A DNA stretch of 64,000 bases from a virus (IMGVR_UViG_3300035703_000041:31225-95224); one strand, 5' to 3'; shown: positions 4,841-62,980, counted from the stretch's first letter. The notes: a model not told the origin generated them from the letters alone. Made by a program: numbers and translations.

Positions 4841-4846
4841 TACAAA

Positions 4847-4852
4847 TAAATA
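4847..4852 (+). promoter_or_regulatory. T4-like late promoter core TAAATA
   Basis: Same hexamer lies just upstream of many late-type genes (12467, 14746, 15881, 24083 as full TATAAATA, 43812, 47223, 59546, 63867). Confidence 0.6.
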
Positions 4853-4878: not shown

Positions 4879-7800
4879 ATGATCAATAAAACAATACTAA
4901 ATGAGGGCGGCAATGTTGAAATAGATGGCATTGCTGCCCAACGTCTTGATTTAAACAAAGTTTCTCGCAGTGCTGTAGTTGCTGAAATAGATAAAGCACT
5001 ACAAATTATTAACAGCACATTTAATAAAGCATACGGAGTTCCTTTATGGAGCCCAGAATTAATAAAAAACAAAGAGTTTTTAAGTGGTAGTGCGTTTCAC
5101 TTCTTTAACGTAAAAATACCAGATGATCAATTCACTAAAGTTAAGTCTAGCGTTGGTGACATCGACACTATGGTTGATAAAGATTTAGCACAAAAAGCAA
5201 GTGACTTTTTAACTAAAGCAAAAGGCAAGCAGTTTGGACCAGCAAAGTTAGTTGGCTTTAAACCTAACCCAGGAATGGATACACTTATTAGTTTGTGGCA
5301 ATTCAACAATCCACCTGTGAATGTACAAATAGATATGGAACTTGTCGACTACGATAAAGGTAGTCCAACAGAGTGGAGCAAGTTTAGCCACAGTAGCGCA
5401 TGGGAAGATTTAAGTGTTGGTGTTAAAGGCGTATTCCACAAGTATCTATTGCGTTCGCTAACACATAAAGATGCTAAAGATCGCTACATTCAAATGAAAA
5501 CAAAGCTTAAAAAAGTTACAGCAGCGGATTTAGCGTTTGCTGTTTCAGGTGGCGTGCGTAATAAGTTTGAACCAGTAATTGATCCAAAAACTAAAAAAAC
5601 AGCAGTAGCACCAGACGGACTTCCAATATACAAGGAAGTGCCAGCAAGTGAAAGCAAGTATGTAACAGACATTAAAGGTATGTTTACACTTTTAATTGGA
5701 CGCAAACCAGTTAAAGGTGAAGAAAAATTATTGGGTAGTTTTGTTGGCGTACTATCTTTAATCAACAAATATTTTAGCAATGAAGATAAAGATAAAATCA
5801 CAAGTGCATTTATGGCATTAATATTTGGCCCTGCTGCTCAACAACTATACAAAGGTGATCCAGCAACAGATAAAAGAGAAAAAGAAATTGCTCTTAACAA
5901 AATGTTGGAAATTTTAAAAGTTAATGTTGATAAAGCAAGTTTAGCAAAAACTGTTGCAGATTATTATTCTAAGTATAAAGCTGAATCAATTACAGAAGCA
6001 GATGCACCAGACTATAAGCGTCAAGGCATCAAGCACATTTATAATCCTGGCTCAACTGTTGAAATGAAAGATGTTGACTTCTTAGCATTTATTGATGCAA
6101 TTGCTAAGAATGGTGGCACACTTGATAACATACCAATTACACTTAAAGTAGATGGTGCAGGTATACGCTTTGGACGAGATCAAAGTGATAAACCATTTTT
6201 TATGACTAGTCGTGTTACAAATCCAATTTACGCTGATAACGTTGGTATGTTTGAAAAGTACGCTAGAGATAATAATGGCAATGAAGAACAAATTGCTCGT
6301 GCTGAAAAGTATGATCAAGCATTAAGTTTAATTGTTAACAGCGACTTTATTAAAGTATTACCAAAAGACACAATTGTCCAAGCAGAAATGATGTACAATC
6401 CAATGGCTGAAAAGACAAGTGCTGGACTTAAGTTTGTAAACATCCCATATGATCCAAAGTTACTTGGTAAACAAATGACGCTTGTGCCAATTGTCGCAAG
6501 TACATATTCAACTGGCGAAGCATTACCAAACACAATTCTTCAAAAAGTAATAAGCAAGTCTACTCCTCAAATTAAAATACTTGGTACTGAGTTACAGCAT
6601 AGCGATATTGATGTAAAAAATATTGTTGAACCAATTGCTAAGATGGATGATACGCTTCGTGCTGCGTTAGCAAGTAGGAAGAAAAATGATCCAGCAAAAG
6701 CAAAAGCAAAAGAAATACTAACAACAGCACGCAAGGCAATTAGTGATGCAATCATTAATAGCCCTAACATTAAAGGTAAAGATAAGCTAGGTAAGACTAT
6801 TGAAGGTTTAGTTATTGCTATGCCAAATGGTCAACTTGCTAAAGTTACCAGTAGCGAAATGAAAGGTGCAATGGCTGCAAAAGCTATTAAGAAAGCACCA
6901 ACAACAGGCAGCAATAGAACTAAAGCTGCTATTGTTACTGCTGGTAGCTTTGTTGGCCACATAGGTCATCAAAAAGTTGTTGATACTGTTATTAACTTTG
7001 CTAAAAAAGTTGGCGGTGACCCGTACATTTACATTAGCAGTAAAGTGGGACCAGATGATCCTATTCCACCAGAAGTAAAATTAGCTACTTGGAAGAAAAT
7101 GTATCCAGAGTATGCAAAAAGTTTCCAACTAATTGTAAGCCCAGATGGTGTAACTGTTCCAAGTCCAGTTAAAAAGATTGAAAAAGAATTAGTACTACCA
7201 GCAAACAGTCCTTACAAAAAGATTGTATTAATGGTTGGTACTGATCGTTATGAAGGTTTCAAGAAGTGGATGGATACTCTTGAAAAGCGTATGAAGGATC
7301 CAGTAGCATTAGCAAAATATGGTGGAACACAAGATCAAGTTGATTACGAAACTATTGCTATACCACGCGGCGCAGCATTAGGTGGTATTGATGCAAGCTT
7401 CACACAACTACGCAATACATTAAAAGATCCTAATCTTTCACTAAAAGAAAAGTTAGCTGTTTGGTCAAAAGGATTTGGTGGAAAGCTAGACGAAGATTGG
7501 ATCAAAAAGTTAATGATGCTTTCTGCTCAAGGCATGGGAATTAAGTTAGGAGAAGCTAAATCACCATGGGATAAAATGGTTAGAGCTGTTCCCAAACTAA
7601 AAGGACATGAAGATAGAGTTAACGATATATTAAAAGCAATTAAGCAAGCAAATGCAGAATATCAAGCAATACTTGATAAAGAAAAAAATCCATTAAAAGA
7701 AGATGATGATCTAAATGTCCGTTTCCATGATACATTAAATCCAGCACTATTTAGAAATAACAAGATGAGTCCTATCGTAAGAGAAAAGCTGCTAAAAATA

Positions 7801-10800
7801 GCAGAGGACTTTAAGGATAGTTTAGGTGTTAAGTTACCAAATCTAAAAGACATTACTGTAAGTGGCAGTAATGCTGCATTCACTTATACACCAAAAAGTG
7901 ATATTGATCTACACTTAGTTGTTGATTTACCTGAAGCAGATGGCGATGCTACTTATAGGGAATTGTTTGATGCTAAGAAGTTCCAATACAACGAGCAGCA
8001 TGACTACAAGATTAAAGAATACGATGTAGAACTTTATGTGCAAAATGCAAATGATGAACATGTAAGTCAAGGTATCTACAGTGTAATGAATGATGCTTGG
8101 ATTAAAGAACCACAACCAGTAAGTGGCGAGTACGATGAAGACAGCACACGCGCCAAATATGATCAAATAAAGTATCTCATACAAAAAGCATTAACTGTAA
8201 GAGATTATGCTTTAGCAGACAAGCTACGTCGAACTATTAAAAAGTATCGTCAAGTTGGGTTACATTCAACTGGTGAGTTTGGTCCTGAAAATCTTGCATT
8301 CAAAGCATTGCGTGCTAATGGCTACATTAAGAAACTGTATGAGTTATTAAATGATATTAAGGACAAAGAGTTTAGTTTAGAGAGTAACGATCAACGATTA
8401 CTTGAAATTGATATGAGTCCAGGAGCACTCAAAAAGTTCTCAACTACTGAGATTGCAAAGTCAACTAGTGTTGGTTTTGAGTTTGAAATGATCGTACCTA
8501 ACATGATAGATGACGGCAGTGAAAGTGAACCAGATTACGATTATGATGAATATGTAACAGATTCAACTGTTACTGCTATGCAAGATGATTTAATTAGATT
8601 CTTTAGAGATACTGAAACAAGTACAGCAATTAAACGAGCAGTTGAAGAAGTATCAGATGAAATAAATGATTTTATTTTAATGGAGTTTGATGGTGAATTA
8701 GATTCTGTAGATCAGCAGAGACGATTAAGAGAATTGTATAAAGCAGATACTTCACTCGAAGATGATGAAATAGAAAAGAGCATTGAAGATCAAGATAGCA
8801 CTTATGACGAAGTATTAAGTTCTTTGAGAGATGAGTATATGGAAGACTGGGACAATCTAAGTGGATTCTTAGAATATAACAGTCTTGAAATGATGTCTGA
8901 ATGGGCTAGTAGATTTAATTGGGAATGGCCACACTACACTGAAGCTGGCAGCGATGAAGTCGACGAACAAGCAATGCGTGAAGTAGCAGATGAAATCAAA
9001 AACGCTGTTAGTATGTCAGTTAGGTCTTCTCCTAATTATCATGCATTTAAGAAAAATAGAGAATCTGGTGTTTGGTATTTAGAAACTGATAGTTCAATTA
9101 ATGCTGATGAAAGTTCTGGTGAAGGTGGACTAGAATTAGTAAGTCCTCCATTGCCACTTGAGCAAGCATTAGAAAAGTTAGATGCAGTTCTAAATTGGAT
9201 GCAGAGATACGGCGCATATACTGATAGTTCAACTGGGTTCCATATGGGTGTAAGCATTCCGCAAATGGAAAATGTTGACTACATTAAGTTAATATTATTC
9301 CTAGGTGACAAATATGTATTAGATCAATTTGGTCGTTTAGGCAATTCATACACCCGCAGCGCACTAGATAAGATGGAAGTACAAAATGTTCCATATGTTA
9401 TGAAAAACATGCCAACTGTATTTGATGCTCTAAAAGGTGGATTAAACAAAGCAGCATTAAAAATGCTTGAATCAGCTCTTGTACCTCGAGGAGACAAATA
9501 TACTAGCGTAAACATTAAGGGCAGCACAACACCTAGTGGAGACATCAAGGATAATTACATTGAATTCCGTAGTGCTGGTGGAGATTACTTAGAAGCGATT
9601 GAAAAGATTAAAAATACACTATTGCGTTATGTTCGTGTAATGGCGCTTGCTGCTGATCCAAATGAAGCAAAGGAAGAGTATGCTAAGAAACTCTACAAGA
9701 TGCTATACAATGCTCAAAGCAATAAAAATGAAGATAATGTAGTTAGATTGTTTAGTATGTTTGCTAGCGGCAATATTTCAAAAGCAGAACTTGTAATGAA
9801 GCTTAAGGCAAAACAAGAATTAAGATTGGCAAAGAAAAGAGGCCCAATTGATTACGCAGTCTTAGATAGGAATAGCGATCCTATTACTATAGTTAAAGCA
9901 ATTAACAATAGCGAAGCTTTAACAAAAGGAATAGAATGGGAAAGAAGCAACCCAGTATCTGGCGGTGTGAGAGGTGTAAGATTAGCGACACTAGACGATA
10001 TAAAAGCTGTAGCTAATAGAAATACTGAAGGACAATGGCAACGTTGGAATGTTTATGGACACGAAGGACAAATCTTTACTAGTGTTTCAGCTCGCAATCG
10101 TCAAGAAGCAAGTCAACTTGCACTACGCTGGGGAAGAGAAAACGATAGTGTTATTTCTCATGTTACTCCTGAATCTGAGGATGAATTTGCAGCACTACAT
10201 AGAACAGAATCAAAAGAAGTTGTAACTGAACTTGCTAACAAGCCATACCCTTTTAAAACACAAGGCAATAAAAAGCATTTTCAAGCTCGTTTCGTAACAG
10301 ACAACAAACTAGTGTATAATGTTATGATTTTGGTCCCTCTTGAAGATTTTGAACCAAATAAAGCAGAAATAGAATTTTTCTCTGAAAATGAAGATGTTTT
10401 AAGAGGACATAAAATAACTGGAACTGGTGATTCTTTTAAAGTATTTGCGACTGTGTTAGAAATAATAAAAGCTTATCTAACAAAGCACAAAACAATCAAC
10501 GAATTTGAATTTGGTGCTAACAAAAGTGAACCGTCCCGTGTAAAGTTGTATGACACTATGGCAAAAATGTTACCAAAATATATTAATAATTTCAAATTTT
10601 TCAATAAGTATCCAAATAACTATAACGGATTCGCGTACCATTTTGTAAAAGTCAAAAAACCAACTACAGTAAAAGAAAATGAATTTGTAACTGAACTTGC
10701 TAATAAACCATATGAATATGATTTAGAAAGCGATAGCAGAGTTCTTCGTGCTACCTTTAAAACAGATGCTGGTCAACCTTATAGAATTTATATCGTAAAA

Positions 10801-11286
10801 GAGAAAGACGAAGAAGGGGAAGTAAAATATATCTCTGTTGAGTTCTCTGCTCTTAAATATGTAGATGGTCGATTCTTAACTACACAAGCTAAAACCGGAA
10901 CAGGTGACGCATTTAGAATATTTGCAACAGTTGGTGCAGTACTAAAACGCTATTTGGATGAAAATCCAGAAATTACTAGATTTGAATTCTCTGGTGATAA
11001 GGATGAACCAAGTCGAATAAAGCTATATGACACTATGGCTAAAATGTTGCCTAAGTTTATTCCACAATTCAAACTAATTGAAATTGAAAAAGGATTTATG
11101 TTTAATCATTATCAATTTTCAAAAGTAAGTAATGAATCAAAAAATCCAAGTTCATTGAAAGAATATATTGAAGTATCTTACAAACCTTTTATTCGAGAAA
11201 AGAAAGAAGAACCAAAAAAAGAGTTAACAGACATGCAAAAAGCGTGTATACTAGGCGGACAAGAATATACAGGTGAGATAAACTAA
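4879..11286 (+). CDS. 2135-aa multidomain polyprotein: Pol-beta-type nucleotidyltransferase, ligase-like domain, HIGH nucleotidyltransferase, second nucleotidyltransferase, amidoligase, duplicated C-terminal domain
   Basis: SGS...GDID...QIDM; KVDG...QAE...EGLVI...AK; GHIGH...VGTDR; SGSNA...SDIDLH; GFEFE...LELVSPP...GFHMGVS...IEFRS; two VTELANKPY repeats; domains separated by [LIV]xE linkers. Confidence 0.8.
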   Translation: MINKTILNEGGNVEIDGIAAQRLDLNKVSRSAVVAEIDKALQIINSTFNKAYGVPLWSPELIKNKEFLSGSAFHFFNVKIPDDQFTKVKSSVGDIDTMVDKDLAQKASDFLTKAKGKQFGPAKLVGFKPNPGMDTLISLWQFNNPPVNVQIDMELVDYDKGSPTEWSKFSHSSAWEDLSVGVKGVFHKYLLRSLTHKDAKDRYIQMKTKLKKVTAADLAFAVSGGVRNKFEPVIDPKTKKTAVAPDGLPIYKEVPASESKYVTDIKGMFTLLIGRKPVKGEEKLLGSFVGVLSLINKYFSNEDKDKITSAFMALIFGPAAQQLYKGDPATDKREKEIALNKMLEILKVNVDKASLAKTVADYYSKYKAESITEADAPDYKRQGIKHIYNPGSTVEMKDVDFLAFIDAIAKNGGTLDNIPITLKVDGAGIRFGRDQSDKPFFMTSRVTNPIYADNVGMFEKYARDNNGNEEQIARAEKYDQALSLIVNSDFIKVLPKDTIVQAEMMYNPMAEKTSAGLKFVNIPYDPKLLGKQMTLVPIVASTYSTGEALPNTILQKVISKSTPQIKILGTELQHSDIDVKNIVEPIAKMDDTLRAALASRKKNDPAKAKAKEILTTARKAISDAIINSPNIKGKDKLGKTIEGLVIAMPNGQLAKVTSSEMKGAMAAKAIKKAPTTGSNRTKAAIVTAGSFVGHIGHQKVVDTVINFAKKVGGDPYIYISSKVGPDDPIPPEVKLATWKKMYPEYAKSFQLIVSPDGVTVPSPVKKIEKELVLPANSPYKKIVLMVGTDRYEGFKKWMDTLEKRMKDPVALAKYGGTQDQVDYETIAIPRGAALGGIDASFTQLRNTLKDPNLSLKEKLAVWSKGFGGKLDEDWIKKLMMLSAQGMGIKLGEAKSPWDKMVRAVPKLKGHEDRVNDILKAIKQANAEYQAILDKEKNPLKEDDDLNVRFHDTLNPALFRNNKMSPIVREKLLKIAEDFKDSLGVKLPNLKDITVSGSNAAFTYTPKSDIDLHLVVDLPEADGDATYRELFDAKKFQYNEQHDYKIKEYDVELYVQNANDEHVSQGIYSVMNDAWIKEPQPVSGEYDEDSTRAKYDQIKYLIQKALTVRDYALADKLRRTIKKYRQVGLHSTGEFGPENLAFKALRANGYIKKLYELLNDIKDKEFSLESNDQRLLEIDMSPGALKKFSTTEIAKSTSVGFEFEMIVPNMIDDGSESEPDYDYDEYVTDSTVTAMQDDLIRFFRDTETSTAIKRAVEEVSDEINDFILMEFDGELDSVDQQRRLRELYKADTSLEDDEIEKSIEDQDSTYDEVLSSLRDEYMEDWDNLSGFLEYNSLEMMSEWASRFNWEWPHYTEAGSDEVDEQAMREVADEIKNAVSMSVRSSPNYHAFKKNRESGVWYLETDSSINADESSGEGGLELVSPPLPLEQALEKLDAVLNWMQRYGAYTDSSTGFHMGVSIPQMENVDYIKLILFLGDKYVLDQFGRLGNSYTRSALDKMEVQNVPYVMKNMPTVFDALKGGLNKAALKMLESALVPRGDKYTSVNIKGSTTPSGDIKDNYIEFRSAGGDYLEAIEKIKNTLLRYVRVMALAADPNEAKEEYAKKLYKMLYNAQSNKNEDNVVRLFSMFASGNISKAELVMKLKAKQELRLAKKRGPIDYAVLDRNSDPITIVKAINNSEALTKGIEWERSNPVSGGVRGVRLATLDDIKAVANRNTEGQWQRWNVYGHEGQIFTSVSARNRQEASQLALRWGRENDSVISHVTPESEDEFAALHRTESKEVVTELANKPYPFKTQGNKKHFQARFVTDNKLVYNVMILVPLEDFEPNKAEIEFFSENEDVLRGHKITGTGDSFKVFATVLEIIKAYLTKHKTINEFEFGANKSEPSRVKLYDTMAKMLPKYINNFKFFNKYPNNYNGFAYHFVKVKKPTTVKENEFVTELANKPYEYDLESDSRVLRATFKTDAGQPYRIYIVKEKDEEGEVKYISVEFSALKYVDGRFLTTQAKTGTGDAFRIFATVGAVLKRYLDENPEITRFEFSGDKDEPSRIKLYDTMAKMLPKFIPQFKLIEIEKGFMFNHYQFSKVSNESKNPSSLKEYIEVSYKPFIREKKEEPKKELTDMQKACILGGQEYTGEIN
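10220..11130 (+). repeat. tandem duplication of a ~150-aa domain inside the giant ORF
   Basis: TTGTAACTGAACTTGCTAAyAArCCATA at 10220 and 10685; both copies contain TGTGD(S/A)F.(V/I)FATV and EPSR.KLYDTMAKMLPK. Confidence 0.9.
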
Positions 11287-11287
11287 A

Positions 11288-11434
11288 ATGCCAGAGAAAA
11301 AGTTTAATGATGACACTGCTAAAACTATTTGGAACAAACTAAAAGGTAAGGATGTTCCACAAGACTACAGTGATAAAGACAAGGAAGATATTGTTAAACG
11401 ATACTGGCATAAAGCAATGGAAAGCGAACAGTAG
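11288..11434 (+). CDS. small hypothetical protein (48 aa, not in ORF track)
   Basis: MPEKKFNDDTAKTIWNKLKG...AMESEQ*; its TAG stop overlaps the GTG start of the next gene. Confidence 0.6.
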   Translation: MPEKKFNDDTAKTIWNKLKGKDVPQDYSDKDKEDIVKRYWHKAMESEQ

Positions 11435-11964
11435 TGTTATTAACAGATTACTATAAATCTGTTTTAGAAAAAGAACACGCCAACGGAGAATGGGGTATTG
11501 CTTCTGTTCATTATGCACCACGTGTTGCAAATATGATGAAGCGTTATAATCTAAATGAAGTTTTAGATTACGGTTCAGGTGCAGGCAATTTAGAAAAAAC
11601 ACTAAAAACTATATTACCTGATGTAATTGTTTATAATTATGAGCCAGGTATACCTAAATGGAATATTATTCCAGCACCATGTAAAATGGTTGCTTGTATT
11701 GATGTTATTGAACATATTGAACCTGAGTGTATAGATTCTGTATTAGATGATTTAGAAAGAATTATTGAGGGTTACGCATTTATATCAATTTCTACTACAT
11801 TAGCAAATAGAGTATTAAACAATGGATGGAATGCTCACATTTGCCTAAAAGATCCACAAGAATGGAAAGAAATTTTTGAGAGAAGATTTCAAATAATTTG
11901 CCCTGGAATGTATGACGGCGGTGTAGAAATTGAAATATGCAGGAGAGACAATGAAAATATATGA
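11434..11964 (+). CDS. class I SAM-dependent methyltransferase
   Basis: VLDYGSGAG motif I; CIDVIEHIE. Confidence 0.8.
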   Translation: MLLTDYYKSVLEKEHANGEWGIASVHYAPRVANMMKRYNLNEVLDYGSGAGNLEKTLKTILPDVIVYNYEPGIPKWNIIPAPCKMVACIDVIEHIEPECIDSVLDDLERIIEGYAFISISTTLANRVLNNGWNAHICLKDPQEWKEIFERRFQIICPGMYDGGVEIEICRRDNENI

Positions 11965-12469
11965 GTTAGCAGGTAAACCAACAGTTTTCGTAGATATGGA
12001 TGGCGTGCTTGCTGACCTGTTTAACCACGTTGGTGACATTCACGATGTTGAACATTACAATCAAATGACTGATCAACAGTGGCAAGATTTTTTTCAAAAT
12101 ACTAATGCTTATCACTTGTTTAAGGATTTACCCCCATTCCCAACAGCAAATCGTTTACTACGTATGGTAAAAGGAATGGTTGGTGGATACAAAATTCTTT
12201 CAAGTCCACTTAACTTTGACCGTGAAGGCAGCATAAAAGGCAAGCGTGAGTGGTTAAGTAGGCATATATCTGTAGCCCCAGATGGCGTTATTTTCGAGCA
12301 TGAAAAATACAAATATGCTGTTAGTAACGGTAAACCAAACATATTAATTGATGATTACGGTGTAAACATTAAAAAATGGCGTGCTGCTGGCGGTATTGGA
12401 ATTAAGTACCAAGCAGATGAAAACAGTTTAGAAGAATTAGCGGAACAGTTAGCGGCTGCTTTGAAATAA
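11951..12469 (+). CDS. HAD-family 5'(3')-deoxyribonucleotidase-like protein
   Basis: FVDMDGVLAD, ILSSP, LIDD motifs; start moved to MKIYEL at 11951 (AGGAG SD). Confidence 0.85.
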   Translation: MKIYELAGKPTVFVDMDGVLADLFNHVGDIHDVEHYNQMTDQQWQDFFQNTNAYHLFKDLPPFPTANRLLRMVKGMVGGYKILSSPLNFDREGSIKGKREWLSRHISVAPDGVIFEHEKYKYAVSNGKPNILIDDYGVNIKKWRAAGGIGIKYQADENSLEELAEQLAAALK

Positions 12470-12491
12470 ATATTACATAGGAACTTATGTA

Positions 12492-14177
12492 ATGAAAATT
12501 AAAGAATTATTAGAGGGTGTTGGACGCATTACACCATATAATCAAACAGTTGATGTAGGGCCAAACGAAATCAAAAAACAAGCAGCTAAGTTTGGATTTA
12601 AAGTAGACAAGGACGGTTATCCTCCTGTTATAGGCAACGGACGCTACGCTAAAAATTCCACCCCTAACAAACTAATGAATCTTGGACTTACTGAATCAAA
12701 AATTATTGAGGCTAGAGGTGTAACTGCTCGCGTTGCTGGTGAGCGATACATAAATGATAAAGATCCAAATGATTACAGAGTTATCCAATCCATTAAAGTT
12801 ATAAATCCACCAAAAACTCCAGCATACAAAACCGCTGAAGAACTTAAAGCTGCTATCAAGGAATATCTTCCTAGAAATGCTAAAACAGTCGATGACAACA
12901 AACATGGCAGTGATTTAAGAGCTGCAATCATAGCAAAAGTTGCTACACCATCAAATGATGTTGAGTATTGGATAAGGTATATTAAAGCAGTACCTCCAAC
13001 GGGTGTACATCAAATGTGGCAAACACTACGCGGATACAGTTATGATAATCCAAGATCAGCTAGTGAAAAGATTAAACTTAAACCATCTGATTTAATTAAA
13101 GATGAAAGTCCTAAAAATCTAAAACAACTAGCAACAGAAATTATGTCTTCTATCGAAGCAATGGGTGATGAAGAGTTGACAAACGCAATGCGTCAAGCAG
13201 TTAATCATGCCGTACAAGGTAAAGACATTGTAATTAAAGATGGTGTTAAATTTGCTACAGCTATATCTAAATATGCAGGAGAATATTTAGGTGCAATGTC
13301 GCTGATGACCGGTAAGATCATGAAAGGTGATCTTAAAAAAGCTATGGAAGCATTAGACATTAATACATTAAAAGGCAGTAAAATTACTTTCCCACAAGCA
13401 AGATTGCAAGAACTATATGACAGCACTTTAACAACATCAGATGGCAAAATATTACAAATAAGCACCAAGATGCATAAAACCGGTTCTGGATCAAGTTTAA
13501 GCGGTGTAGTAAAGCAACTTAATGATGATATTGAATCACAGTATCCAAAAGGTGCTGCTGTTTTACGTATGCTTGGTGGTGAATCAAGTGGTGCAGCTGG
13601 TGTGTTAAAAGCTGCTCAAGAGTACAAATTAATTAATGCCTCAGATGTAAAAGAAGTAATGAGTATGGATCCTGGTTCTAAAGATCCAACAATTATTAAA
13701 AGTCCAAGATTGCAAAGATTATTTTCAGAACAAAAAGTTAGTGCTGGAGCACCAAAAAGATTTGGTTACACAATACGCAGACATTTAATGGCTGCTATTG
13801 CAAACAGGACAGTTAAAACAATTAATGAAGATAATGAAGTATTAACTGCACTTATGCTCGCTTTAAACAACAACAATTATTTGCAAGTTGTTACTGAAAC
13901 ATCTATAACTGGCAACGATGTTACTATGACTTTTTATACAAAATATCCAACAGAATTTAGTGGCAAACCTAAATTACAAAATGCTGCTTTTTGGAGCACT
14001 GGTGAACAAGGTAGAATAGCATTCTCATTACCTACAACTAATGTTGATGTTGAAGTTGAAGAACCAGAAGTAGAAGTTCCAGTAAAAAGAAAACCAGTAC
14101 CAATTACAGCAAGAAATCCTAAATTAGATAAATCAAAGTCAGCCCCGAAAGGAGTTGGTCGCGGTAAGAGGGATTAA
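12492..14177 (+). CDS. two-part protein with MKIKELLE leader; C-terminal part possibly PD-(D/E)xK nuclease-like
   Basis: TAAATA at 12467; linker LTESKIIE|ARG; LYDS...LQISTK resembles the D...(E/Q)xK nuclease pattern. Confidence 0.55.
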   Translation: MKIKELLEGVGRITPYNQTVDVGPNEIKKQAAKFGFKVDKDGYPPVIGNGRYAKNSTPNKLMNLGLTESKIIEARGVTARVAGERYINDKDPNDYRVIQSIKVINPPKTPAYKTAEELKAAIKEYLPRNAKTVDDNKHGSDLRAAIIAKVATPSNDVEYWIRYIKAVPPTGVHQMWQTLRGYSYDNPRSASEKIKLKPSDLIKDESPKNLKQLATEIMSSIEAMGDEELTNAMRQAVNHAVQGKDIVIKDGVKFATAISKYAGEYLGAMSLMTGKIMKGDLKKAMEALDINTLKGSKITFPQARLQELYDSTLTTSDGKILQISTKMHKTGSGSSLSGVVKQLNDDIESQYPKGAAVLRMLGGESSGAAGVLKAAQEYKLINASDVKEVMSMDPGSKDPTIIKSPRLQRLFSEQKVSAGAPKRFGYTIRRHLMAAIANRTVKTINEDNEVLTALMLALNNNNYLQVVTETSITGNDVTMTFYTKYPTEFSGKPKLQNAAFWSTGEQGRIAFSLPTTNVDVEVEEPEVEVPVKRKPVPITARNPKLDKSKSAPKGVGRGKRD

Positions 14178-14191
14178 AATGGGAGATCAAT

Positions 14192-14434
14192 ATGAAAATA
14201 AAAAATACATTGGAGGATTTTACAATCCCCTTCAAACCAACATCACCCCCTGGAACGATCAAAAGAAAAGCTTTAGAATACTTAGGTAAAAAGCTTGGAG
14301 AAAAACTCTCCAAAAAAGATTTAAAACTTGTGGAATCTAAAGCAGACAAAATAAAGAAATCCACAGTTAAGGCAGATAGGCAAATAAATCATCAATTAGT
14401 AAAACAAGTTGAACTAATTAAAGATATAGAATAA
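14192..14434 (+). CDS. small basic hypothetical protein
   Basis: GGGAG SD; MKIKNTLE leader. Confidence 0.65.
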   Translation: MKIKNTLEDFTIPFKPTSPPGTIKRKALEYLGKKLGEKLSKKDLKLVESKADKIKKSTVKADRQINHQLVKQVELIKDIE

Positions 14435-14748
14435 TGCTAGTTCAAATTAATGTAGATGTATATGCTTATTACAAGCATCAACCCCCAGTTTATAGATTTT
14501 GGGTAAATGATACCCTTTACAACGAAAGAGAATTTTGGGTTGATTGTTTATCAAACTATATAGAAGAAGAAATGTATGTTGAACTAGAACCTGGCAAACA
14601 TACTTTTTTAATAGAAAAAGTAACTACTGACATACATTCTAAAATATGGGTAGAAAAGTTTGTTGTAAAATACAATGAAACTGTAAATACAGTGTTTTTA
14701 AATATAGATCCACAAGATAAACAAATAATTAATTTTGAAATAGGATAA
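14434..14748 (+). CDS. hypothetical protein
   Basis: TAATG stop-start coupling with the upstream ORF. Confidence 0.65.
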   Translation: MLVQINVDVYAYYKHQPPVYRFWVNDTLYNEREFWVDCLSNYIEEEMYVELEPGKHTFLIEKVTTDIHSKIWVEKFVVKYNETVNTVFLNIDPQDKQIINFEIG

Positions 14749-14776
14749 ATAATATTATTATACGGAGACGCAAGTC

Positions 14777-15163
14777 ATGACTAAGAAGAGAATTAAAGAA
14801 GGCCTCAGCGACGAAGCTATGGCAGTTGACCGCGACCATGAGGTACAAATGGCTCGCGCTCAACTTTATCATTTAGCTAATGATGCTGTACGCTTACATA
14901 AGTTGTTAAAGAACGTAACTGAATCAGAAGGACTAGAAGGTTGGATGCAAAGCAAGATTACACTTGCTGCGGACTACATTAAATCAACTGCTGATTACTT
15001 GGAATACGATAAGATTAAAGCACCTAGACCAGTAACAGTTACTCCAGCACCAATGATGCCAACTGCTGGTATGCCTGAAAGTGTAAGCGCAGGTGGTATG
15101 GGTGCTGGATCGGTTGCTACTGCTCCAATGGCTCTTAAAAAGAAACCATTAGTTAGAAGATAA
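14777..15163 (+). CDS. hypothetical protein, probable head-internal protein
   Basis: TAAATA at 14746, GGAG SD; RIKE|G leader; LEGWMQSKITLAADY helix motif. Confidence 0.7.
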   Translation: MTKKRIKEGLSDEAMAVDRDHEVQMARAQLYHLANDAVRLHKLLKNVTESEGLEGWMQSKITLAADYIKSTADYLEYDKIKAPRPVTVTPAPMMPTAGMPESVSAGGMGAGSVATAPMALKKKPLVRR

Positions 15164-15844
15164 TTTCAATATTTCCCAAGTATGCTCCCAGTTTTCAACA
15201 CGGTGAGCAATATCAACACTAACAGCCAGGGGGTAATCATTTCCCCCTGGCAATGTTTTATCACCAAAGAAAATAACTGGGCCTGTAGGTTTAATAAACT
15301 CTAATACTTGGCGCTTATCTTTACCTGTAGGGTAAATGTCTATTCCAGTATCACCACCAATCATAAAGTCAATGTTTTTGAACTGGCGTTCAAGTCTTAA
15401 TGCTATATCAATCCGCTCACCGTGTTCTTCATCATACTTTTTGTATGTGTCTCGCTGTTGGGAATCAGCGCCGCGACCTAATACACTAAAATTTACTAGT
15501 CCAGTTCGAATTTCTATATGATTCCCTGTACGTATGGGAAACTTACTGTTAGTTAATTCTTCATCTAACGCATCAATTAGTTCGTGTGGTGGTTGCCAGT
15601 TTGAAGCATGTGTTATTAGCTTACCTATTCTTACTTCGTTCCCGCAACAGTTAAAGATCATTTTAGCGTTATCTATTACTTCTTCCCCAACTTGTGCTAA
15701 AGTTTTAGGATAATCACTTCCAGTAACAAGATAAGTATTATGTGTTTTTTGCCACTCAACAAACCAATCTTTAAATTTAGGATCCATTTTAGCCCTGCTT
15801 GGTGTTAGTGTACCATCTACGTCAAAAACATAACTTATATTCAT
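15149..15844 (-). CDS. HAD-IIB hydrolase, eukaryotic-type phosphomannomutase-like
   Basis: FDVDGTLTPSR, LVTGSD, IEIRTGLVNFS, FFGDKTLPGGNDY; start at MNISY assumed. Confidence 0.85.
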   Translation of the reverse strand: MNISYVFDVDGTLTPSRAKMDPKFKDWFVEWQKTHNTYLVTGSDYPKTLAQVGEEVIDNAKMIFNCCGNEVRIGKLITHASNWQPPHELIDALDEELTNSKFPIRTGNHIEIRTGLVNFSVLGRGADSQQRDTYKKYDEEHGERIDIALRLERQFKNIDFMIGGDTGIDIYPTGKDKRQVLEFIKPTGPVIFFGDKTLPGGNDYPLAVSVDIAHRVENWEHTWEILKLSSN

Positions 15845-15905
15845 GTTTAAATTTAACATAAGTTATATGTTAAAATCAAATAAATAAACAATATTGGAGA
15901 CTTGA

Positions 15906-16334
15906 ATGTCACGCGGATTAATGAAAAAGTATATAGATATACTAATGGAAGCTTTAAGCTATTCCAGCTTGCAAGATGCAGGAGATGATTATAGTCCTGG
16001 CAATACTCAAATTTGGTATTGGAGAGAAGATCTTGGACGCGATATGATGATGGGATATGATTTCCTTAAAAAGCAAAACAAGCTTCCGGATCCAGCAAAT
16101 TTATCAGCTACACATGTACTAATTGGTAGCATTGCTGAAACTAATTTAGATAAAATTTATTCAATGATGCAATCAGAAAGTTGGAGCCCACAGGGTGAAG
16201 CTAGAGATTTAATTAATAAAAGCGGGGCTGGTCATACAAGTATGAGTGTTGGTGATATTATTGTAATTAATAATGATGCATCTATGGTTGATAAAGTTGG
16301 GTTCGTAAACCTAGCAACAGGGGAAGAAATATAA
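15906..16334 (+). CDS. YodL-like domain protein with MKKYIDILME leader
   Basis: GHTSMSVGDII motif; TAAATA at 15881. Confidence 0.6.
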   Translation: MSRGLMKKYIDILMEALSYSSLQDAGDDYSPGNTQIWYWREDLGRDMMMGYDFLKKQNKLPDPANLSATHVLIGSIAETNLDKIYSMMQSESWSPQGEARDLINKSGAGHTSMSVGDIIVINNDASMVDKVGFVNLATGEEI

Positions 16335-17710
16335 TGTTACTTGAAAGTTTATTAAAAGAGTTTGATGAAGCAGTAAACAAACCTAAATTTACTGGTTATT
16401 GGAAAGCTCAAGATAAAGCACCTCCAGGCAAGAAAATGGTTGGTGAAGAAGAAAAAACTACAGAAGCATCAACTTTGGATACTGACATTGAATATGAACC
16501 AAGTGTAGATCAAGAGTTTGATAAGAAAGAGCTTGCAGCATTGTTAACTCAAAAATTAACAGGACTAGCACCAAAAGAAGAACGAGCAATTAGATTAAAA
16601 ATATTTTATGATTATACTTATGATCAAATTGGTGAAAAATTTGGGGTATCTGGTGATAGAGCAAGAGACATCTTTATGAAGGGAATTAGAAAATTGAGGC
16701 ACCCTTCTCGCGCGAGAGAAATTAGACCTTTCCTTGAGGATGAAAATCCAACAGATAAAATTACAATGGATATACCACTATTTTTACGTATGATGGAATA
16801 TGCTAAAGAAGATGCAAAAACAGATATGGACTTGCATCAAGTAACTGCTCGCGCAATAGAATTAATGCAACAACATGACTACCTATGTATGGATAATTAT
16901 GATACTATCATAAACAATAGCGAACCTATAGATGAAGGTTGGTTAGATAAAGTTTACTCTGCTGGTCGTAACTTTGCTGATACTGCCACTCTAGGTGGTT
17001 ACAAGTATGCACGAGCTGGTGCTGATTACGCTGCTAAGAACATTGGCAATAAATTAGGGTTCGATGTGAAACCTACCACATATCAAAAAGAACTTGATCA
17101 GGAAGTTGAAAAACTTAACAAAGATTGGGAAAAGGAACCAGGTGCAAGTCTAGCTGGCATGGGTGGAGCAATGGCTTTACCTCTAGCCGGTCAATACGGC
17201 GCTGCTGTTAAAGGCGCACAGGGGTTAGGTGGTCAAGCATTAGATGCTTACGGTAAGTTTGTTAAAACATATCCATTGGCTAAAAAAGCTTTAGGTTTAG
17301 AAAACAAAGATGAAGATATAGATGAAGAGAAAAAAGGTCTTTACTATTATGTAAACAAGCGTAAAAAGGCTGGCACAAGCAGACCAGCTAGTCATCCAAA
17401 AGCACCAAGCGAACAAGATTGGAAGAACGCTGCTAAGACTGCAAAGAAAGAAAGTGTGGGCGAAGCGGGTCAATTTTCATATGGAGCTAAAACTCCACGC
17501 AAAGGCACAGTTGCTTACAACGCAGCACAAAAGCGTAAAGAAGATGAAAAAAGACAAAAACCAATTGAGCCAAAAGATCAAATGGTCGGTGTTGCTAAGG
17601 TAACAAAAGAAGGCAAGGAAAAAGGCGCTGATGGCAAAGCTTGCTGGCCAGGTTATCGTTATGCTGGCACAGAGAACGGCAAAGACAAGTGTGTGAAAGT
17701 TAAGAAGTAA
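16334..17710 (+). CDS. mosaic polyprotein containing a sigma70 region-4 HTH module and several short basic modules
   Basis: LAPKEERAIRL...TYDQIGEKFGVSGDRARDI..KGIRKLRHPSR; modules bounded by LKE, VGE, FLE, IDE. Confidence 0.75.
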   Translation: MLLESLLKEFDEAVNKPKFTGYWKAQDKAPPGKKMVGEEEKTTEASTLDTDIEYEPSVDQEFDKKELAALLTQKLTGLAPKEERAIRLKIFYDYTYDQIGEKFGVSGDRARDIFMKGIRKLRHPSRAREIRPFLEDENPTDKITMDIPLFLRMMEYAKEDAKTDMDLHQVTARAIELMQQHDYLCMDNYDTIINNSEPIDEGWLDKVYSAGRNFADTATLGGYKYARAGADYAAKNIGNKLGFDVKPTTYQKELDQEVEKLNKDWEKEPGASLAGMGGAMALPLAGQYGAAVKGAQGLGGQALDAYGKFVKTYPLAKKALGLENKDEDIDEEKKGLYYYVNKRKKAGTSRPASHPKAPSEQDWKNAAKTAKKESVGEAGQFSYGAKTPRKGTVAYNAAQKRKEDEKRQKPIEPKDQMVGVAKVTKEGKEKGADGKACWPGYRYAGTENGKDKCVKVKK

Positions 17711-19315
17711 ATGTTAATTAAAGATTTGCTACAAGGATCTACGCATGTTAATGAGGATGCTATATCAGATCTTGCCAGTAAATTAAAGAGTACTAAAGCA
17801 ACAAGTTATGATAATATCGATGCAATTATGCAAAAGATAGCAAAAGACAATAATATAACAGCTAAAGAATTACACGACATTTGGGTAAAAAAGTACGGTG
17901 AAAAACCAGATGATTGGATTAAAGATCAACTTAATGAAGCATTAACCGCTAAAGATACAGTTGAACGTTGGATTGCTGTTTTTAAAAGTAGTAAGCATCC
18001 AAAGTTTGCAGGTAAAACTCCTGAGCAGCGTGAGAAGATGGCAAGAGCTGCACAATATCGTGCAGTTCATAATAAAAAAATTAATGAAGCAAAAGTAACA
18101 CTATATACTGATCCATCATACTATGGTGCTGAAGTTGCAGACAATGCTGGCGAAGGTATACCCGTACAAGAAATACCATTAGACAATTTAGTTGGGTTTG
18201 AACCTGACGTTAAAATGCAGGACAAAAAGAGTGCAGCCAATATGTCTAAAATGGTTGACCTATTGAAAGCAGGCAAGGGCAAAGAACTACCACCAATACT
18301 AGTACGCAAGTATAAAAATGGTTATCAAGTATTAGATGGACATCATAGATTCCATGCTTACAAGAAAGCTGGAATAAAAACTATTCCAGCTAAACTTGTT
18401 CCTGATGAAGATATCAAAGTTGTTGATAAAATTGAAGAAGGTCCAGTTTGGGATAAAGTAAAGAATACTGCACTTGCTGGAACAATGGCAGGTGCGCTAG
18501 GGTATGGTGCGCTAACAGGGCAGTTACGTGACGAACCAAGGCAAGTGCCAGTTGACAAACCTCCTTTAGAAATTACTATACCAGGTGGTCAAGCAGAACC
18601 TGAAGTTAAAAAAGAACCAGAAAAACTATCACCAAGTACCGCTACAAACGCAAACAAAGAAATGGAAAAACTCGTGCTAACTGTTGCTTATCGCTCTGGG
18701 ATAAGAGGTCAAGAGTTGGCACAATTCATGGGACAAGTTGCTCATGAGACACTAGGATTTCAACGTTTAGTAGAAGTTGGTAGCGCAGAATACTTTAATA
18801 GATATGATCCAGAACATAGTCCTAAAAAAGCAAAGATACTTGGTAATGTTAATCCTGGTGACGGCATACGTTATAAAGGTCGCGGGTTTATACAAATAAC
18901 TGGGCGTGACAACTATAAGCGTGCTGGGAAAGCACTAGGGATTGATTTAGAAAATAACCCAAAGTGGGCAAGCAGTCCTAAAATTGCTGCTAAGATCGCT
19001 GTATGGTATTGGAAAAGTAGAGTAAAACCAGCAGTGGATGACTATACTGATACTATTGGTGTTACTTCAAAAATTAATCCTAGTATGAATGGTCTTGGTG
19101 ATAGAGACATGAACTTTCATCATTATTTAGAAAAGCTTAATTTAAATGAAAATTTTGCTGATGGAAAGAAACCAGGACGCAAGGGATTAGCCAAAAGAGT
19201 TGGTGTTAATTGTAAACAAAGCGTGACAAAGTTAAGAAAAATTGCTAGTAATAGTAGTGGTGAAAAACAGCGTATGGCACATTGGTGTGCAAATATGAAA
19301 GGCGGCAAAAAATGA
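17711..19315 (+). CDS. mosaic polyprotein with a ParB/Srx-like domain and a GH19 (lysozyme/chitinase) domain
   Basis: PPILVRK...VLDGHHR; AQFMGQVAHET...YKGRGFIQITGRDNY; linkers VNE, LNE, INE, IEE, LNE. Confidence 0.8.
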   Translation: MLIKDLLQGSTHVNEDAISDLASKLKSTKATSYDNIDAIMQKIAKDNNITAKELHDIWVKKYGEKPDDWIKDQLNEALTAKDTVERWIAVFKSSKHPKFAGKTPEQREKMARAAQYRAVHNKKINEAKVTLYTDPSYYGAEVADNAGEGIPVQEIPLDNLVGFEPDVKMQDKKSAANMSKMVDLLKAGKGKELPPILVRKYKNGYQVLDGHHRFHAYKKAGIKTIPAKLVPDEDIKVVDKIEEGPVWDKVKNTALAGTMAGALGYGALTGQLRDEPRQVPVDKPPLEITIPGGQAEPEVKKEPEKLSPSTATNANKEMEKLVLTVAYRSGIRGQELAQFMGQVAHETLGFQRLVEVGSAEYFNRYDPEHSPKKAKILGNVNPGDGIRYKGRGFIQITGRDNYKRAGKALGIDLENNPKWASSPKIAAKIAVWYWKSRVKPAVDDYTDTIGVTSKINPSMNGLGDRDMNFHHYLEKLNLNENFADGKKPGRKGLAKRVGVNCKQSVTKLRKIASNSSGEKQRMAHWCANMKGGKK

Positions 19316-19740
19316 GGCAGTGGATTAATTTGTTTGAAGACATTAATGATGAATGGTTCAGTAACGGCGGTTTCCAAGCATGGAAACAACCAGTCCCAGT
19401 AAAGTATACTACAGCAGCAGACTCAGGCACTATTCAAACACTTGAAGGTCCAGTAGCATATGGTGCTGGATTTAAAATTATTACTGGACCAAAAGGTGAA
19501 CAGTATCCAGTTCCTCCACAAAAGTTTGCAGAACTATATGATGATAATGAAGATGGTACTGCTACACCAAAGAAGATTGTTAAGACCGCTAAAGTAGCAG
19601 ATCACAACGGCGCTGTTAAGACAAGCTGGGGCGAGACGCTAAACTATACTGCAGGTGAGGATGTGATTGTACGACATGGACCAGGCGATTATGGTGTAGT
19701 TAAGAAAGATATTTTCGCTAAAACTTATACAACTTCTTAA
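19312..19740 (+). CDS. PGDYG-family protein
   Basis: QTLEG and HGPGDYGVV motifs; start moved to MRQWINLFE (ATGA overlap with upstream stop). Confidence 0.7.
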   Translation: MRQWINLFEDINDEWFSNGGFQAWKQPVPVKYTTAADSGTIQTLEGPVAYGAGFKIITGPKGEQYPVPPQKFAELYDDNEDGTATPKKIVKTAKVADHNGAVKTSWGETLNYTAGEDVIVRHGPGDYGVVKKDIFAKTYTTS

Positions 19741-47561: not shown

Positions 47562-47907
47562 GTTAGCTTTTGACGTTTGCTCATATTTAGGATTAACAGA
47601 TAATAGTTTTGACTCTGTATATCTAAATATGTGGCGTAATATAAGGGAAGATGGCGGTTATCGTTTAACTGAACGTGGACACGAATGGTTGAATGAACTT
47701 GGGTTGAAGTGTCACACGATCAAATTGGATTATGATTCTCACAAAACAAACGTAACAACTGGCAACATCTTACTTGGATTAGACCGCCATTTGAAGGCGC
47801 CATATTTTCTAAAAGGTGGAAAGCTTAGTATTTTTGATGATAGTATCAGCACACAATTGTTGCTGTATGGCGGGGATATCAAAGCTTATATTGAAGCTAA
47901 CAGTTAG
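47545..47907 (+). CDS. hypothetical protein
   Basis: GGYRLTERG; ends in TAG. Confidence 0.7.
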   Translation: MDLKRKLAFDVCSYLGLTDNSFDSVYLNMWRNIREDGGYRLTERGHEWLNELGLKCHTIKLDYDSHKTNVTTGNILLGLDRHLKAPYFLKGGKLSIFDDSISTQLLLYGGDIKAYIEANS

Positions 47908-48524
47908 TGTAAGCTTGGGTTATATATTGGATCTATAATTACACCAGTATCACCTCTAAACAAGAAATTTCCAAAATGCAAATCTAGCTGATCTCCTTTT
48001 CCTCTTATCTTGTTAATTTTCATAAGTGTATCATAAAGAAGTGGGTCTACTTTTTTAAGTCTTATAGCTCTATTTTTGATAGTAGCTGGAGAGTAAATGT
48101 CCTCAACTGCATCTTTAAACATTTTATGTTTTGGATTATCTCGGTTGATATAATCAAGTTTTTCTAAACGAACAACATAAACACCCTTTGCTATTTTAAT
48201 ATACTTTCCTTTAATTTTTGGAAGATATGGATTACCTTGATTAGCTCTAACAAATTCAAAGAACTTAAAATATGATGGATCATTATAGAAAAGCTTAAAC
48301 ACCCAAGGGTACTGAGGATGAGTAAATGTTGCACCAAACGAACCTTGGCCTAATTCCTTAAACCCTTTTTTCTTTAGATATTTAGAAAAGGTAATTAATG
48401 CATTGTTACGTCCATAATTCCATTCTGTGCCTAATTCATCCCTAGAACCAACTGGAGGAAACTTTTTTTTAGCTTTCTTATAGATTAGATTGCTTTTGTA
48501 TGGGGTAAGTTCACTAATTTTCAT
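47904..48524 (-). CDS. protein-kinase-like protein with MKISEL leader
   Basis: LGQGSFG glycine loop, VFK lysine, DLHFGN catalytic loop, IIDP; TAAATA 7 nt upstream on the minus strand. Confidence 0.8.
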   Translation of the reverse strand: MKISELTPYKSNLIYKKAKKKFPPVGSRDELGTEWNYGRNNALITFSKYLKKKGFKELGQGSFGATFTHPQYPWVFKLFYNDPSYFKFFEFVRANQGNPYLPKIKGKYIKIAKGVYVVRLEKLDYINRDNPKHKMFKDAVEDIYSPATIKNRAIRLKKVDPLLYDTLMKINKIRGKGDQLDLHFGNFLFRGDTGVIIDPIYNPSLH

Positions 48525-48581
48525 AACCAATTATTTATTTGTTTTCTTAGTTTCATGTTGCTATAATGACAATATTAAACA

Positions 48582-62773: not shown

Positions 62774-62980
62774 ATGAGAAACGATCTAATTGAAGCAAGC
62801 CGCAAGCATTTTGAGGCTCACATTGAAAAGCATAGAATGAATGTTGAAGTTATTCTAAGCAACCCAACTGCTATCCATGGACATGTAGATGTTATGGATG
62901 CAATTGAAAAAGAACTAGCTGAAATGGCGGATTACGCAGATAAGCTAGAAATGCTCACTACATATTTTAAGGTAAGCTAA
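62774..62980 (+). CDS. hypothetical protein
   Basis: GGAG SD; 68-aa helical hairpin. Confidence 0.75.
   Translation: MRNDLIEASRKHFEAHIEKHRMNVEVILSNPTAIHGHVDVMDAIEKELAEMADYADKLEMLTTYFKVS

Follow-up and report, generated by a model that had tools for sequence, protein, structure and literature searches.

Can a set of enzymes be loaded into a phage head as one polypeptide, be cut apart there and then be injected with the DNA? This question is raised by a block of genes at positions 4879-19740 of a 64,000-nucleotide stretch of virus DNA, referred to here as the window (IMGVR_UViG_3300035703_000041, bases 31225-95224 of a 95 kb IMG/VR virus fragment). A first-pass annotation had described the block as a series of polyproteins in which one shared leader loads many enzymes into the head and a protease, cutting at [LIV]-x-E linkers, releases the pieces. 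Judging from the sequence and from relatives, the block probably encodes head-internal (ejection) proteins that are packaged and lose their leader. Cutting at the internal joints, taken on its own, has about an even chance of being correct.

The completeness of the fragment is about 26% by CheckV. The sequence identity of its DNA polymerase to the enzymes of Sinorhizobium phage Phosso, Agrobacterium phage Atu_ph07 and the Rak2-like phages GAP32 and CBB is 44-50%. The source is therefore placed, by sequence similarity, as an uncultured jumbo phage of the T4 superfamily, in the Rak2/Atu_ph07 branch. A megablast search with the block gave no DNA match to cultured phages. Open reading frames (ORFs) were annotated by Pfam and PHROG profile scans, by AlphaFold models built on alignments and by a Foldseek fold search. 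The 2135-residue ORF that opens the block is covered by two multi-domain AlphaFold models, and a search of 5.8 billion proteins gave 340 relatives of it, with 1174-3737 residues.

Leaders of the block proteins

The ORFs of the block and their N-terminal leaders are found where the first-pass annotation had placed them. In what follows the Glu of the motif is called P1, the hydrophobic residue P3 and the residue after the Glu P1'. A slash marks the point behind the Glu, and h-x-E stands for the motif with a hydrophobic residue at P3. By a loose criterion (an [LIV]xE motif ending at residue 5-20), a leader is present in 9 of the 10 plus-strand ORFs at 4879-19740; of the 139 other ORFs of the 95 kb fragment, 35 have one (Fisher p = 7e-5). 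Leaders are missing from ORF 14434-14748 and from the minus-strand ORF 15149-15859. Among the leaders that had been listed, the weak ones are MKIKNTLE, MKIYE, which has five residues only, and that of the methyltransferase-like ORF at 11434, which is doubtful.

The leader can be compared most closely in homologues of module 1, the first domain of the 2135-residue ORF. There it is 5-17 residues long and variable in sequence (62 distinct N-termini). P1 is Glu in 60 of the 62, with an invariant GGN directly after it, and P3 is Leu, Ile or Val in all 59 of the homologues that have a leader, while P2 is free. The background rate of [LIV]xE is 11%. An example is the homologue in the T4-like Campylobacter phage CP20, which reads ...MFILE/GGN. 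Other homologues are leaderless and start M-GGN, with the residue next after the Glu; these are found in Xanthomonas phage BUDD, Vibrio phage pv27 and two further relatives (P0053 and P0064). Because the leaderless homologues begin MGGN, the leader Glu is not part of the module 1 domain.

In a direct comparison, T4 ipII and ipIII begin MKTYQEFIAE/A, and the ipI leader has 19 residues and ends ...STITE/A. A short N-terminal leader that ends in L/I-x-Glu and is absent from some homologues, as expected of a T4-type capsid-targeting sequence (CTS), is thus also what the module 1 family has, and at the level of sequence the leader of the 2135-residue ORF resembles the T4 CTS. Processing in T4 is prevented by an Asp at P1. 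The idea that the leaders are ordinary AT-rich N-termini is rejected on account of the conservation of P3 and P1 and the reuse of the motif inside proteins.

Similar-looking leaders occur elsewhere in the window, in ORF 59559-60443 (...AIVNE/) and ORF 60440-61510 (MIIEELFLVE/G). About 16.2 kb upstream of the window start, a 344-residue ORF at fragment bases 14979-16013 begins MLLVDLFE/GG and has TAAATA 10 bases upstream. By its sequence it is a further leader-bearing candidate.

The polyprotein and its joints

Seven or eight modules can be recognized in the 2135-residue ORF from Pfam and PHROG matches, split homologues and folds; all coordinates given for it are on the plus strand. The leader MINKTILNE/ lies at 4879-4905 (residues 1-9), and pLDDT, the AlphaFold confidence score, is below 50 at residues 1-11. 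Module 1 (4906-5997, residues 10-373) is a Pol-beta-type nucleotidyltransferase with a GDxD motif (phrog_19290). It has a weak Foldseek match to Pol beta and is a stand-alone gene in BUDD, pv27 and CP20. It ends at ITE/373, where E373 is invariant in 39 sequences and pLDDT is below 50 at 368-375. Modules 2 and 3 (5998-7554, residues 374-892) are an RNA-ligase-like domain with KxDG and an HxGH adenylyl/cytidylyltransferase, ending at LGE/892. They are treated as one unit because no site lies at their joint. BUDD gene C aligns with residues 380-657, and phrog_3041 spans 666-801. K423/D425/G426 and H694/G696/H697 are invariant, as is the GDxD of module 1. Their fold matches are to T4 Rnl1/Rnl2 and to NaMNAT (NaMN adenylyltransferase)/FAD synthetase, respectively.

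A helical spacer peptide follows (7555-7701, residues 893-941), running from LGE/892 to LKE/941, with pLDDT below 50 at 892-910 and 934-955. Module 4 (7702-8406, residues 942-1176; PF01909, phrog_36119) is of the NTP_transf_2/aminoglycoside-nucleotidyltransferase type, has a weak fold match to AAD(9) and ends at LLE/1176. Module 5 (8407-10230, residues 1177-1784; PF12224) is a glutamine-synthetase-like amidoligase together with two small alpha/beta repeats, and ends at VTE/1784; its fold match is to glutamine synthetase. In the AlphaFold model the two repeats occupy 9841-10185 (residues 1655-1769), behind the amidoligase core and ahead of the first DUF6934 module, with no site between them. 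Modules 6 and 7 (10231-11163, residues 1785-1939 and 1940-2095; PF22028) are tandem DUF6934 domains of GNAT-like fold. Each starts after VTE/LANKPY; the fold match, a weak one, is to AAC(6')-Ib. The C-terminal tail (11164-11286, residues 2096-2135), after LKE/2095, is disordered (pLDDT below 50). Residues 2083-2135 align to the C-termini of relatives that have no DUF6934 modules (P0006, P0008 and P0011-13).

The fold matches serve as labels only, since Foldseek gave no match at E <= 1e-3 for either multi-domain model; those to Pol beta and T4 Rnl1/Rnl2 have a probability of >= 0.9 and E-values of 2e-3 or worse. Modules 1 and 2 have no Pfam match. In a tblastn search of cultured phages, the ligase and cytidylyltransferase part matched only two Xanthomonas phages. 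The link to cyanophage cytidylyltransferases comes from the PHROG profile and one weak pairwise match, in which gp154 of phage S-CREM2 aligns with residues 694-809 at 27% identity.

The nucleotidyltransferase, RNA-ligase-like and NMNAT-like modules occur in the same order as separate leaderless neighbour genes in BUDD. Because BUDD has them as ordered neighbours, the first three modules may form one pathway. The joined domains had been described as unrelated, and this does not stand for these three, which by BUDD gene order probably belong together. A Pol-beta nucleotidyltransferase with an RNA ligase is a known phage RNA-repair pair (PMC7824862), and by analogy modules 1-3 suggest early repair of cleaved tRNA, or nucleotide-cofactor chemistry.

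These genes also favour another explanation, by which the 2135-residue protein would be an unpackaged cytoplasmic multi-enzyme for RNA repair or nucleotide modification, its N-terminal peptide and joint Glu residues being ordinary linker or domain-cap features. In BUDD the genes matching the nucleotidyltransferase and ligase-like modules are adjacent and leaderless, with the cytidylyltransferase gene next to them; the RNA-repair pairing and the lack of overall motif enrichment (below) fit the same explanation. It is nevertheless quite improbable. The leaderless homologues drop the Glu as well, and the leader is common to unrelated neighbour proteins and to the protease and scaffold of relatives. 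Late-promoter motifs and the detection of two module homologues in virions also argue against it, as does the fact that one shared N-terminal module (the N-module, below) and the same joints carry unrelated cargo, namely superoxide dismutase (SOD), GH19, NT5C and sigma region 4.

Do the [LIV]xE sites mark the joints of the packaged polyprotein that is favoured here? According to the first-pass annotation, internal boundaries fall on such sites. At the modules' edges or between modules, pLDDT falls below 50 at residues 1-11, 368-375, 892-910, 934-955, 1162-1176, 1770-1783 and 2085-2135, and it dips to 53 at 1930-1939. All eight of these low-confidence inter-module linkers and termini hold or abut a site: E9, 373, 892, 941, 1176, 1784, 1933/1939 and 2095/2107. 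Six floppy loops inside domains have no site within them, E1363 being about five residues from one loop. The structure predictions thus agree with the expectation of low-confidence linkers carrying sites at the joints. The expectation that the motif is commoner at boundaries than within domains is borne out in part: residues with pLDDT below 50 make up 9.8% of the total and hold 8 of the 29 sites (binomial P = 0.0055). Twelve sites lie in the inferred linkers (about 196 residues) and 17 in the module interiors (about 1939 residues), a ratio that is not fully independent because module limits were set partly from the same breakpoints. Depletion inside modules is modest (17 against 27 expected) and significant only in the amidoligase (4 against 11.6).

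Module exchange among relatives gives a second view of the joints. Alignments with relatives break at residues 363, 886-896, 936-941, 1181, 1782-1783, 1931-1947 and 2083-2090; each of the seven breakpoints is at most 12 residues away from a site (chance about 2e-4), and the exchanged joints correspond to residues 373, 892, 941, 1176, 1784, 1933/1939 and 2095. For instance, P0014 and P0015 lack exactly 1182-1781, and P0017 lacks 364-938. Some relatives delete or reorder DUF6934 modules. Insertions follow the same pattern. P0005 has a ParB module inserted at KLDE/ and ending KMKE/; this module is homologous to residues 124-244 of the 534-residue ORF of the block and recurs in other polyproteins after h-x-E/(G/A)KVxLYTDP. 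P0002 and P0004 have a 110-residue module inserted before DDLNV, and relatives insert modules at both ends of the spacer. The contig that carries P0002 is 179 kb long, and that of P0008 357 kb. NT5C and sigma region 4 also occur inside polyproteins of relatives. These exchanges support the prediction that domain swaps among related phages break at [LIV]xE sites.

The motif is retained where a module changes its surroundings. At the amidoligase joint, L/V/I-x-E/(V/I)xMSPxAL, it is present in 31 of 31 distinct contexts, and at the DUF6934 joint, (V/L)(T/N)E/LANKPY, in 13 of 13. Stand-alone forms carry the same junction as a leader. In one related locus (L020) the amidoligase is a separate gene beginning ...AELAE/VSMSPGAL, compared with ...RLLE/IDMSPGAL here, and P0101-type proteins begin ...EILNE/VNMSPSAL. 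In Atu_ph07 gp196 the leader Glu13 (...KLTE/) aligns with E1176. S-CREM2 gp156 (MKKLISE/) matches module 4 end to end (its residues 10-237 against 945-1168, 34% identity). In an unbiased all-against-all comparison of split and fused proteins, a site was found at 88 of 244 junctions (36%) compared with 48.2 +/- 6.2 at random positions (maximum 70 in 1000 trials), a significant excess, although this test is diluted by truncated ORFs and imprecise alignment ends.

Several observations weigh against a packaged protein that is cut at these sites. The whole ORF has 29 [LIV]xE motifs where 32.8 are expected from its composition, so a global enrichment of the motif is rejected. Many sites (18 of the 29) lie in helices or strands, inside folded domains, and there is no site at the ligase-to-cytidylyltransferase joint; the claim that internal boundaries fall on the motif therefore stands for all eight flexible linkers and termini, and not for every boundary or every site. 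Some joints have Ile, Val or Leu at P1', where the leaders of T4 internal proteins are followed by Ala. In some relatives the ParB and NTP_transf_2 joints have Met, Phe, Ala, His or Thr at P3, and the leader MKIKNTLE of ORF 14192-14434 is off consensus in having Thr at P3. In part, the conserved Glu could serve as a structural cap for the domain behind it. Finally, the leaderless neighbour genes of BUDD indicate that the first modules can work without being packaged.

One could also suppose that the proteins are packaged and lose only the leader, and that the internal joints are relics of gene fusion. The polyprotein would then stay whole, like the virion RNA polymerase of phage N4. Stand-alone leader-bearing forms of most modules make fusion a likely origin, and transfer without processing is known for the N4 polymerase and for several polyvalent proteins (PMC5512222). 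Even so this is unlikely. The internal joints retain only the minimal h-x-E and not the rest of a leader. Because the motif is kept in the 31 and 13 diverged contexts mentioned above while P2 varies, continued selection on the joints is indicated. The joints lie in low-confidence linkers of the AlphaFold models, and cleavage at more than one site is known for the scaffold and core proteins of T4 and for ejection proteins of the phiKZ type (PMC9026906).

Expression, protease and virion proteomes

The T4-type late promoter is TATAAATA. A similar motif, ATAAATA, is avoided in the window, with 13 copies (spanning 3404-59551) where 30.3 are expected, and nearly all copies sit just upstream of gene starts. 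This avoidance and placement confirm the late-promoter-like motif that had been noted upstream of the block genes. One copy (4846-4852, plus strand) lies before the polyprotein gene, and further copies in the block (12466-12472, 14745-14751 and 15880-15886) stand at the heads of its transcription units. Another heads a unit that holds a virion structural protein. As a sequence motif, ATAAATA precedes block genes and structural genes alike, and it is probably the late promoter of the source phage. It is also seen before a 957-residue minus-strand ORF (24065, minus) read as a tail fibre, before ORF 47904-48530 (minus strand, MKISEL...) and before ORF 59559-60443.

In T4, capsid targeting needs no more than the first 10 residues of IPIII, and the prohead protease gp21 cleaves behind L/I-X-E (PMC9026906). 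A gp21-like protease had been proposed as a check of the processing idea, and the result is divided. A search of the 95 kb fragment (about 26% complete) with PF03420 found no S77 protease, which counts against processing in the source phage. GAP32, Atu_ph07, CP20 and BUDD each have a Peptidase_S77 (gp21-type) gene, as do two of five partial relatives that carry the polyprotein (62% and 47% complete). The S77 proteases of relatives start with the same kind of leader (MKHSYLRE/..., MKTTLAE/...), and their adjacent scaffold-like genes begin MLDAFKQLVE/... and MSKLDKFLNE/...

It could be asked whether the leaders instead mark substrates of the phage Clp system, or of another protease, for regulated turnover. 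Genes for a Clp-type ATPase and a DnaJ-like protein come just before the block, and the window has a ClpP-like ORF. The ATPase has 756 residues (156-2426, phrog_4871) and the DnaJ-like ORF directly upstream of it ends at window base 81; the ClpP-like ORF (62980-63573) is identified from its N-terminal sequence only. ClpP degrades processively, without h-x-Glu site specificity, and Clp ATPase/ClpP is rejected as the processing system because this specificity does not fit. The motif fits the reported S77 specificity, and proteins marked for turnover are not expected in virion proteomes. A role of the leaders in turnover is accordingly very improbable indeed.

Published virion proteomes include homologues of two modules (4 and 5), in S-CREM2 and Atu_ph07. 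Atu_ph07 gp196, a homologue of the amidoligase module, was detected by virion mass spectrometry with 14 unique peptides and 30% coverage (PMC6102473 Table S5). Its gene is two genes from the portal gene gp198 (locus L027, Atu_ph07 record bases 154929-161860). It is flanked by gp195, a nucleotidyltransferase annotated as T4 GC1542, and gp197, an 845-residue virion protein whose gene adjoins that of the portal. Atu_ph07 thus displays the head-gene surroundings that this fragment lacks. In S-CREM2, gp154 (cytidylyltransferase), gp155, gp156 and gp160 are reported in the virion proteome (PMC10665884), and all four have h-x-E leaders, that of gp155 ending at LRE/18. Its gp157 and gp158 have no leader and gp159 has an off-consensus Phe-Ser-Glu; gp157-gp159 are not seen among the virion proteins in the part of Table 3 that was examined (PMC10665884). 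The S-CREM2 GH19 endolysins are also listed as virion-associated (PMC10665884); the endolysin catalytic domain is 46% identical to that of the 534-residue ORF. Two points weigh on the other side. The Atu_ph07 proteome was obtained from PEG-purified phage and comprises 131 proteins, topoisomerase included (PMC6102473), and the S-CREM2 authors warn that abundant proteins may co-purify (PMC10665884).

Taking these lines of evidence together, we propose that the system works as follows. The block genes would be transcribed from late promoters (ATAAATA) together with structural genes. A CTS-type leader (M-K/L-I/L-x-D/E-L-h-x-E) would take each protein into the scaffold core of the prohead, where a gp21-type (Peptidase_S77) prohead protease cutting after L/I-x-Glu would remove it. 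The same protease would cut the motif in exposed linkers and convert the 2135-residue chain into about seven pieces: the Pol-beta nucleotidyltransferase, the RNA-ligase-like and NMNAT-like unit, the 49-residue spacer, the ANT-type nucleotidyltransferase, the amidoligase, the two DUF6934 units and the tail. Without the tail, the predicted masses are, in this order, about 41, 58, 5.5, 27, 69, 18 and 18 kDa. Carried out of the head along with the DNA, the pieces would be active as infection begins. Probable functions of the block's cargo would be RNA (tRNA) repair, nucleotide and cofactor chemistry, wall lysis (GH19), DNA handling (ParB) and interference with RNA polymerase (sigma region 4). Of the original proposal that one leader loads a polyprotein and a protease releases its pieces, the architecture is backed by relatives; for the source phage, we infer from sequence that the proteins are targeted, packaged, cut at their internal joints and injected, and what they do in the host.

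Further candidate cargo and known systems

Several other proteins of the block, all on the plus strand, appear to be built by the same plan. A protein of 561 residues (12492-14177) has the leader MKIKELLE/ (residues 1-8), an N-module (9-68) ending NLGLTE/, then SKIIE/ (69-73), a main domain (74 to about 520) and a basic tail. Its shorter homologues begin MRAKEFLSE/SRGVTAR. It has no Pfam or PHROG match, no close IMG/VR relative in a pattern scan and no tblastn match in cultured phages. A faint ESM Atlas lead to a restriction endonuclease, at 0.90, was not adopted, the other matches being viral hypothetical clusters.

The 458-residue protein (16334-17710) has the leader MLLESLLKE/, sigma-70 region 4 (PF04545) and a lysine-rich tail; its orthologue in the related locus L011 has ...MKQLDE/ at the same place. 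The 534-residue protein (17711-19315) has a leader ...THVNE/, a ParB-N domain (residues 124-244) after INE/, a hydrophobic segment and a GH19 muramidase-type domain (PF02195, PF00182). Its tail (19126-19315, residues 472-534) follows LNE/ and is basic and Cys-containing (NFADGKKPG...CANMKGGKK). This tail is a mobile module, which recurs at the C-termini of P0202 and P0210 with 55-61% identity, again after h-x-E.

The smaller proteins include an NT5C 5'-nucleotidase (11951-12469; PF06941) with the leader MKIYE/, a weaker cargo candidate, and an 80-residue basic protein (14192-14434) that begins MKIKNTLE, with an L011 orthologue beginning MKIEDTLE. A 128-residue protein (14777-15163) has the leader MTKKRIKE/, a basic C-terminus and an ATAAATA of its own. 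A 137-residue protein (15921-16334) has a weak YodL-like match and the leader MKKYIDILME/, its L011 orthologue reading ...RKYLDILME/. The last is a 142-residue PGDYG-domain protein (19312-19740; PF14083) with the leader MRQWINLFE/.

The N-module of the 561-residue protein (12516-12695, residues 9-68) is basic, has about 60 residues and lies between two h-x-E sites (GRIxKGVNTTxDVGPxEIKKQAAKFG...NLGLTE). It is present in at least 459 clusters (50% identity representatives, E <= 1e-3, among 1.84 billion proteins), in proteins of 58-1472 residues, and also occurs alone as genes of 58-71 residues. Among 111 proteins whose N-module bears AAKFG, an h-x-E is found 21-24 residues before AAKFG in 102 and 37-39 residues after it in 95, and this spacing is the same for N-terminal (81) and internal (30) N-modules. 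The domains behind it (n = 136) include NT5C, the commonest with 16, DUF5661 (8) and GH19 (5). Further cargo comprises IF2_N, sigma region 4, GNAT, Cu/Zn SOD, a poly(A)-polymerase-type enzyme, lysozymes and an HD domain. NT5C, sigma region 4, GH19 and DUF6934 are also found in this block, each in genes of their own that bear a leader, and within the polyproteins of relatives. The N-module belongs to no Pfam or PHROG family, its 62-residue query gave no tblastn match in cultured phages, and no description of it was found in the literature. A targeting adaptor and a basic internal peptide are possibilities for its role.

A common plug-in rule for T4-superfamily phages, from cyanophages to jumbo phages of 350-500 kb, can be put forward tentatively, with a little less than an even chance: a CTS leader, often an N-module, and then enzyme beads joined by h-x-Glu, cut in trans by the prohead protease. 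One gene may then deliver a changeable kit of RNA repair, NMNAT-like, amidoligase, GNAT, nucleotidase, SOD, lysozyme, ParB and sigma-mimic functions.

If all this is true, T4-type phages carry a head cargo that greatly exceeds, in size and modularity, the handful of small internal proteins known from T4. Enzyme sets would be in the cell before phage gene expression, which bears on how RNA-cutting, NAD-depleting and restriction defences are beaten. With the rule of leader, N-module and h-x-E, injected proteins could be recognized from sequence alone in thousands of uncultured phages, and T4-based delivery particles could be loaded with several proteins on a natural design. It would also mean that a DNA phage makes use of polyproteins and has them processed by its capsid maturation protease.

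The literature searched gave no account, for T4-type phages, of the N-module or of enzyme polyproteins with a CTS leader and h-x-E joints. The closest known system is formed by IPI, IPII, IPIII and Alt of T4. Like the block, these have a short leader ending in L/I-x-Glu, diverse and fast-changing cargo, a gp21-family protease (here in relatives) and, to judge for the block by its promoter motif, late expression. T4 internal proteins enter the cell with the DNA and there counter defences or help in takeover (PMC3012670, PMC9026906). In T4, however, each cargo is a single small protein or enzyme, whereas here up to seven or eight modules follow one leader and the motif is repeated at the joints. 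The N-module that often follows the leader here, a second shared element, is another difference. The two sets of proteins have no sequence homology, and the block is known from sequence alone.

A second precedent is the class of polyvalent proteins of phages and conjugative elements (Iyer et al. 2017), described as large proteins having 2-15 effector domains, as predicted to be packaged and delivered with DNA, and as analogous to viral polyproteins (PMC5512222). Overlapping domains (ParB, lysozyme, GNAT, Pol-beta nucleotidyltransferase and YodL) and mosaic shuffling are likenesses to the block. Several unrelated enzyme or effector domains per polypeptide, the feature that defines such proteins, are found here too, including ParB and GH19 in the 534-residue ORF. 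For those proteins, processing by an embedded zincin-like metallopeptidase is proposed (PMC5512222), whereas the joints here fit a prohead protease acting in trans; no peptidase domain was found in the block proteins by Pfam and PHROG scans or among the fold matches. The leader, the N-module and the nucleotidyltransferase/amidoligase set were not found in the parts of that paper that were searched, and the word 'amidoligase' is absent from it (PMC5512222).

Phages of the phiKZ-like giant group, with the proteases phiKZ gp175 and SPN3US gp245, also have head-internal proteins that are cut after Glu at several sites (PMC9026906). Their propeptides hold redundant sites, and the protease is a diverged gp21 homologue (PMC9026906). 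The motif there is S/A-x-E and not L/I/V-x-E, the lineage is different, and the substrates are mainly structural inner-body and ejection proteins, not strings of enzymes. S-CREM2 gp156 and gp154 are a further parallel, being homologous to module 4 and the HxGH module, equipped with h-x-E leaders and detected in virions. Their genes are separate and small, whereas the modules are fused here, and the S-CREM2 paper is silent on leaders or processing (PMC10665884). The T4 CTS/gp21 system and the polyvalent-protein concept each anticipate parts of the proposed architecture.

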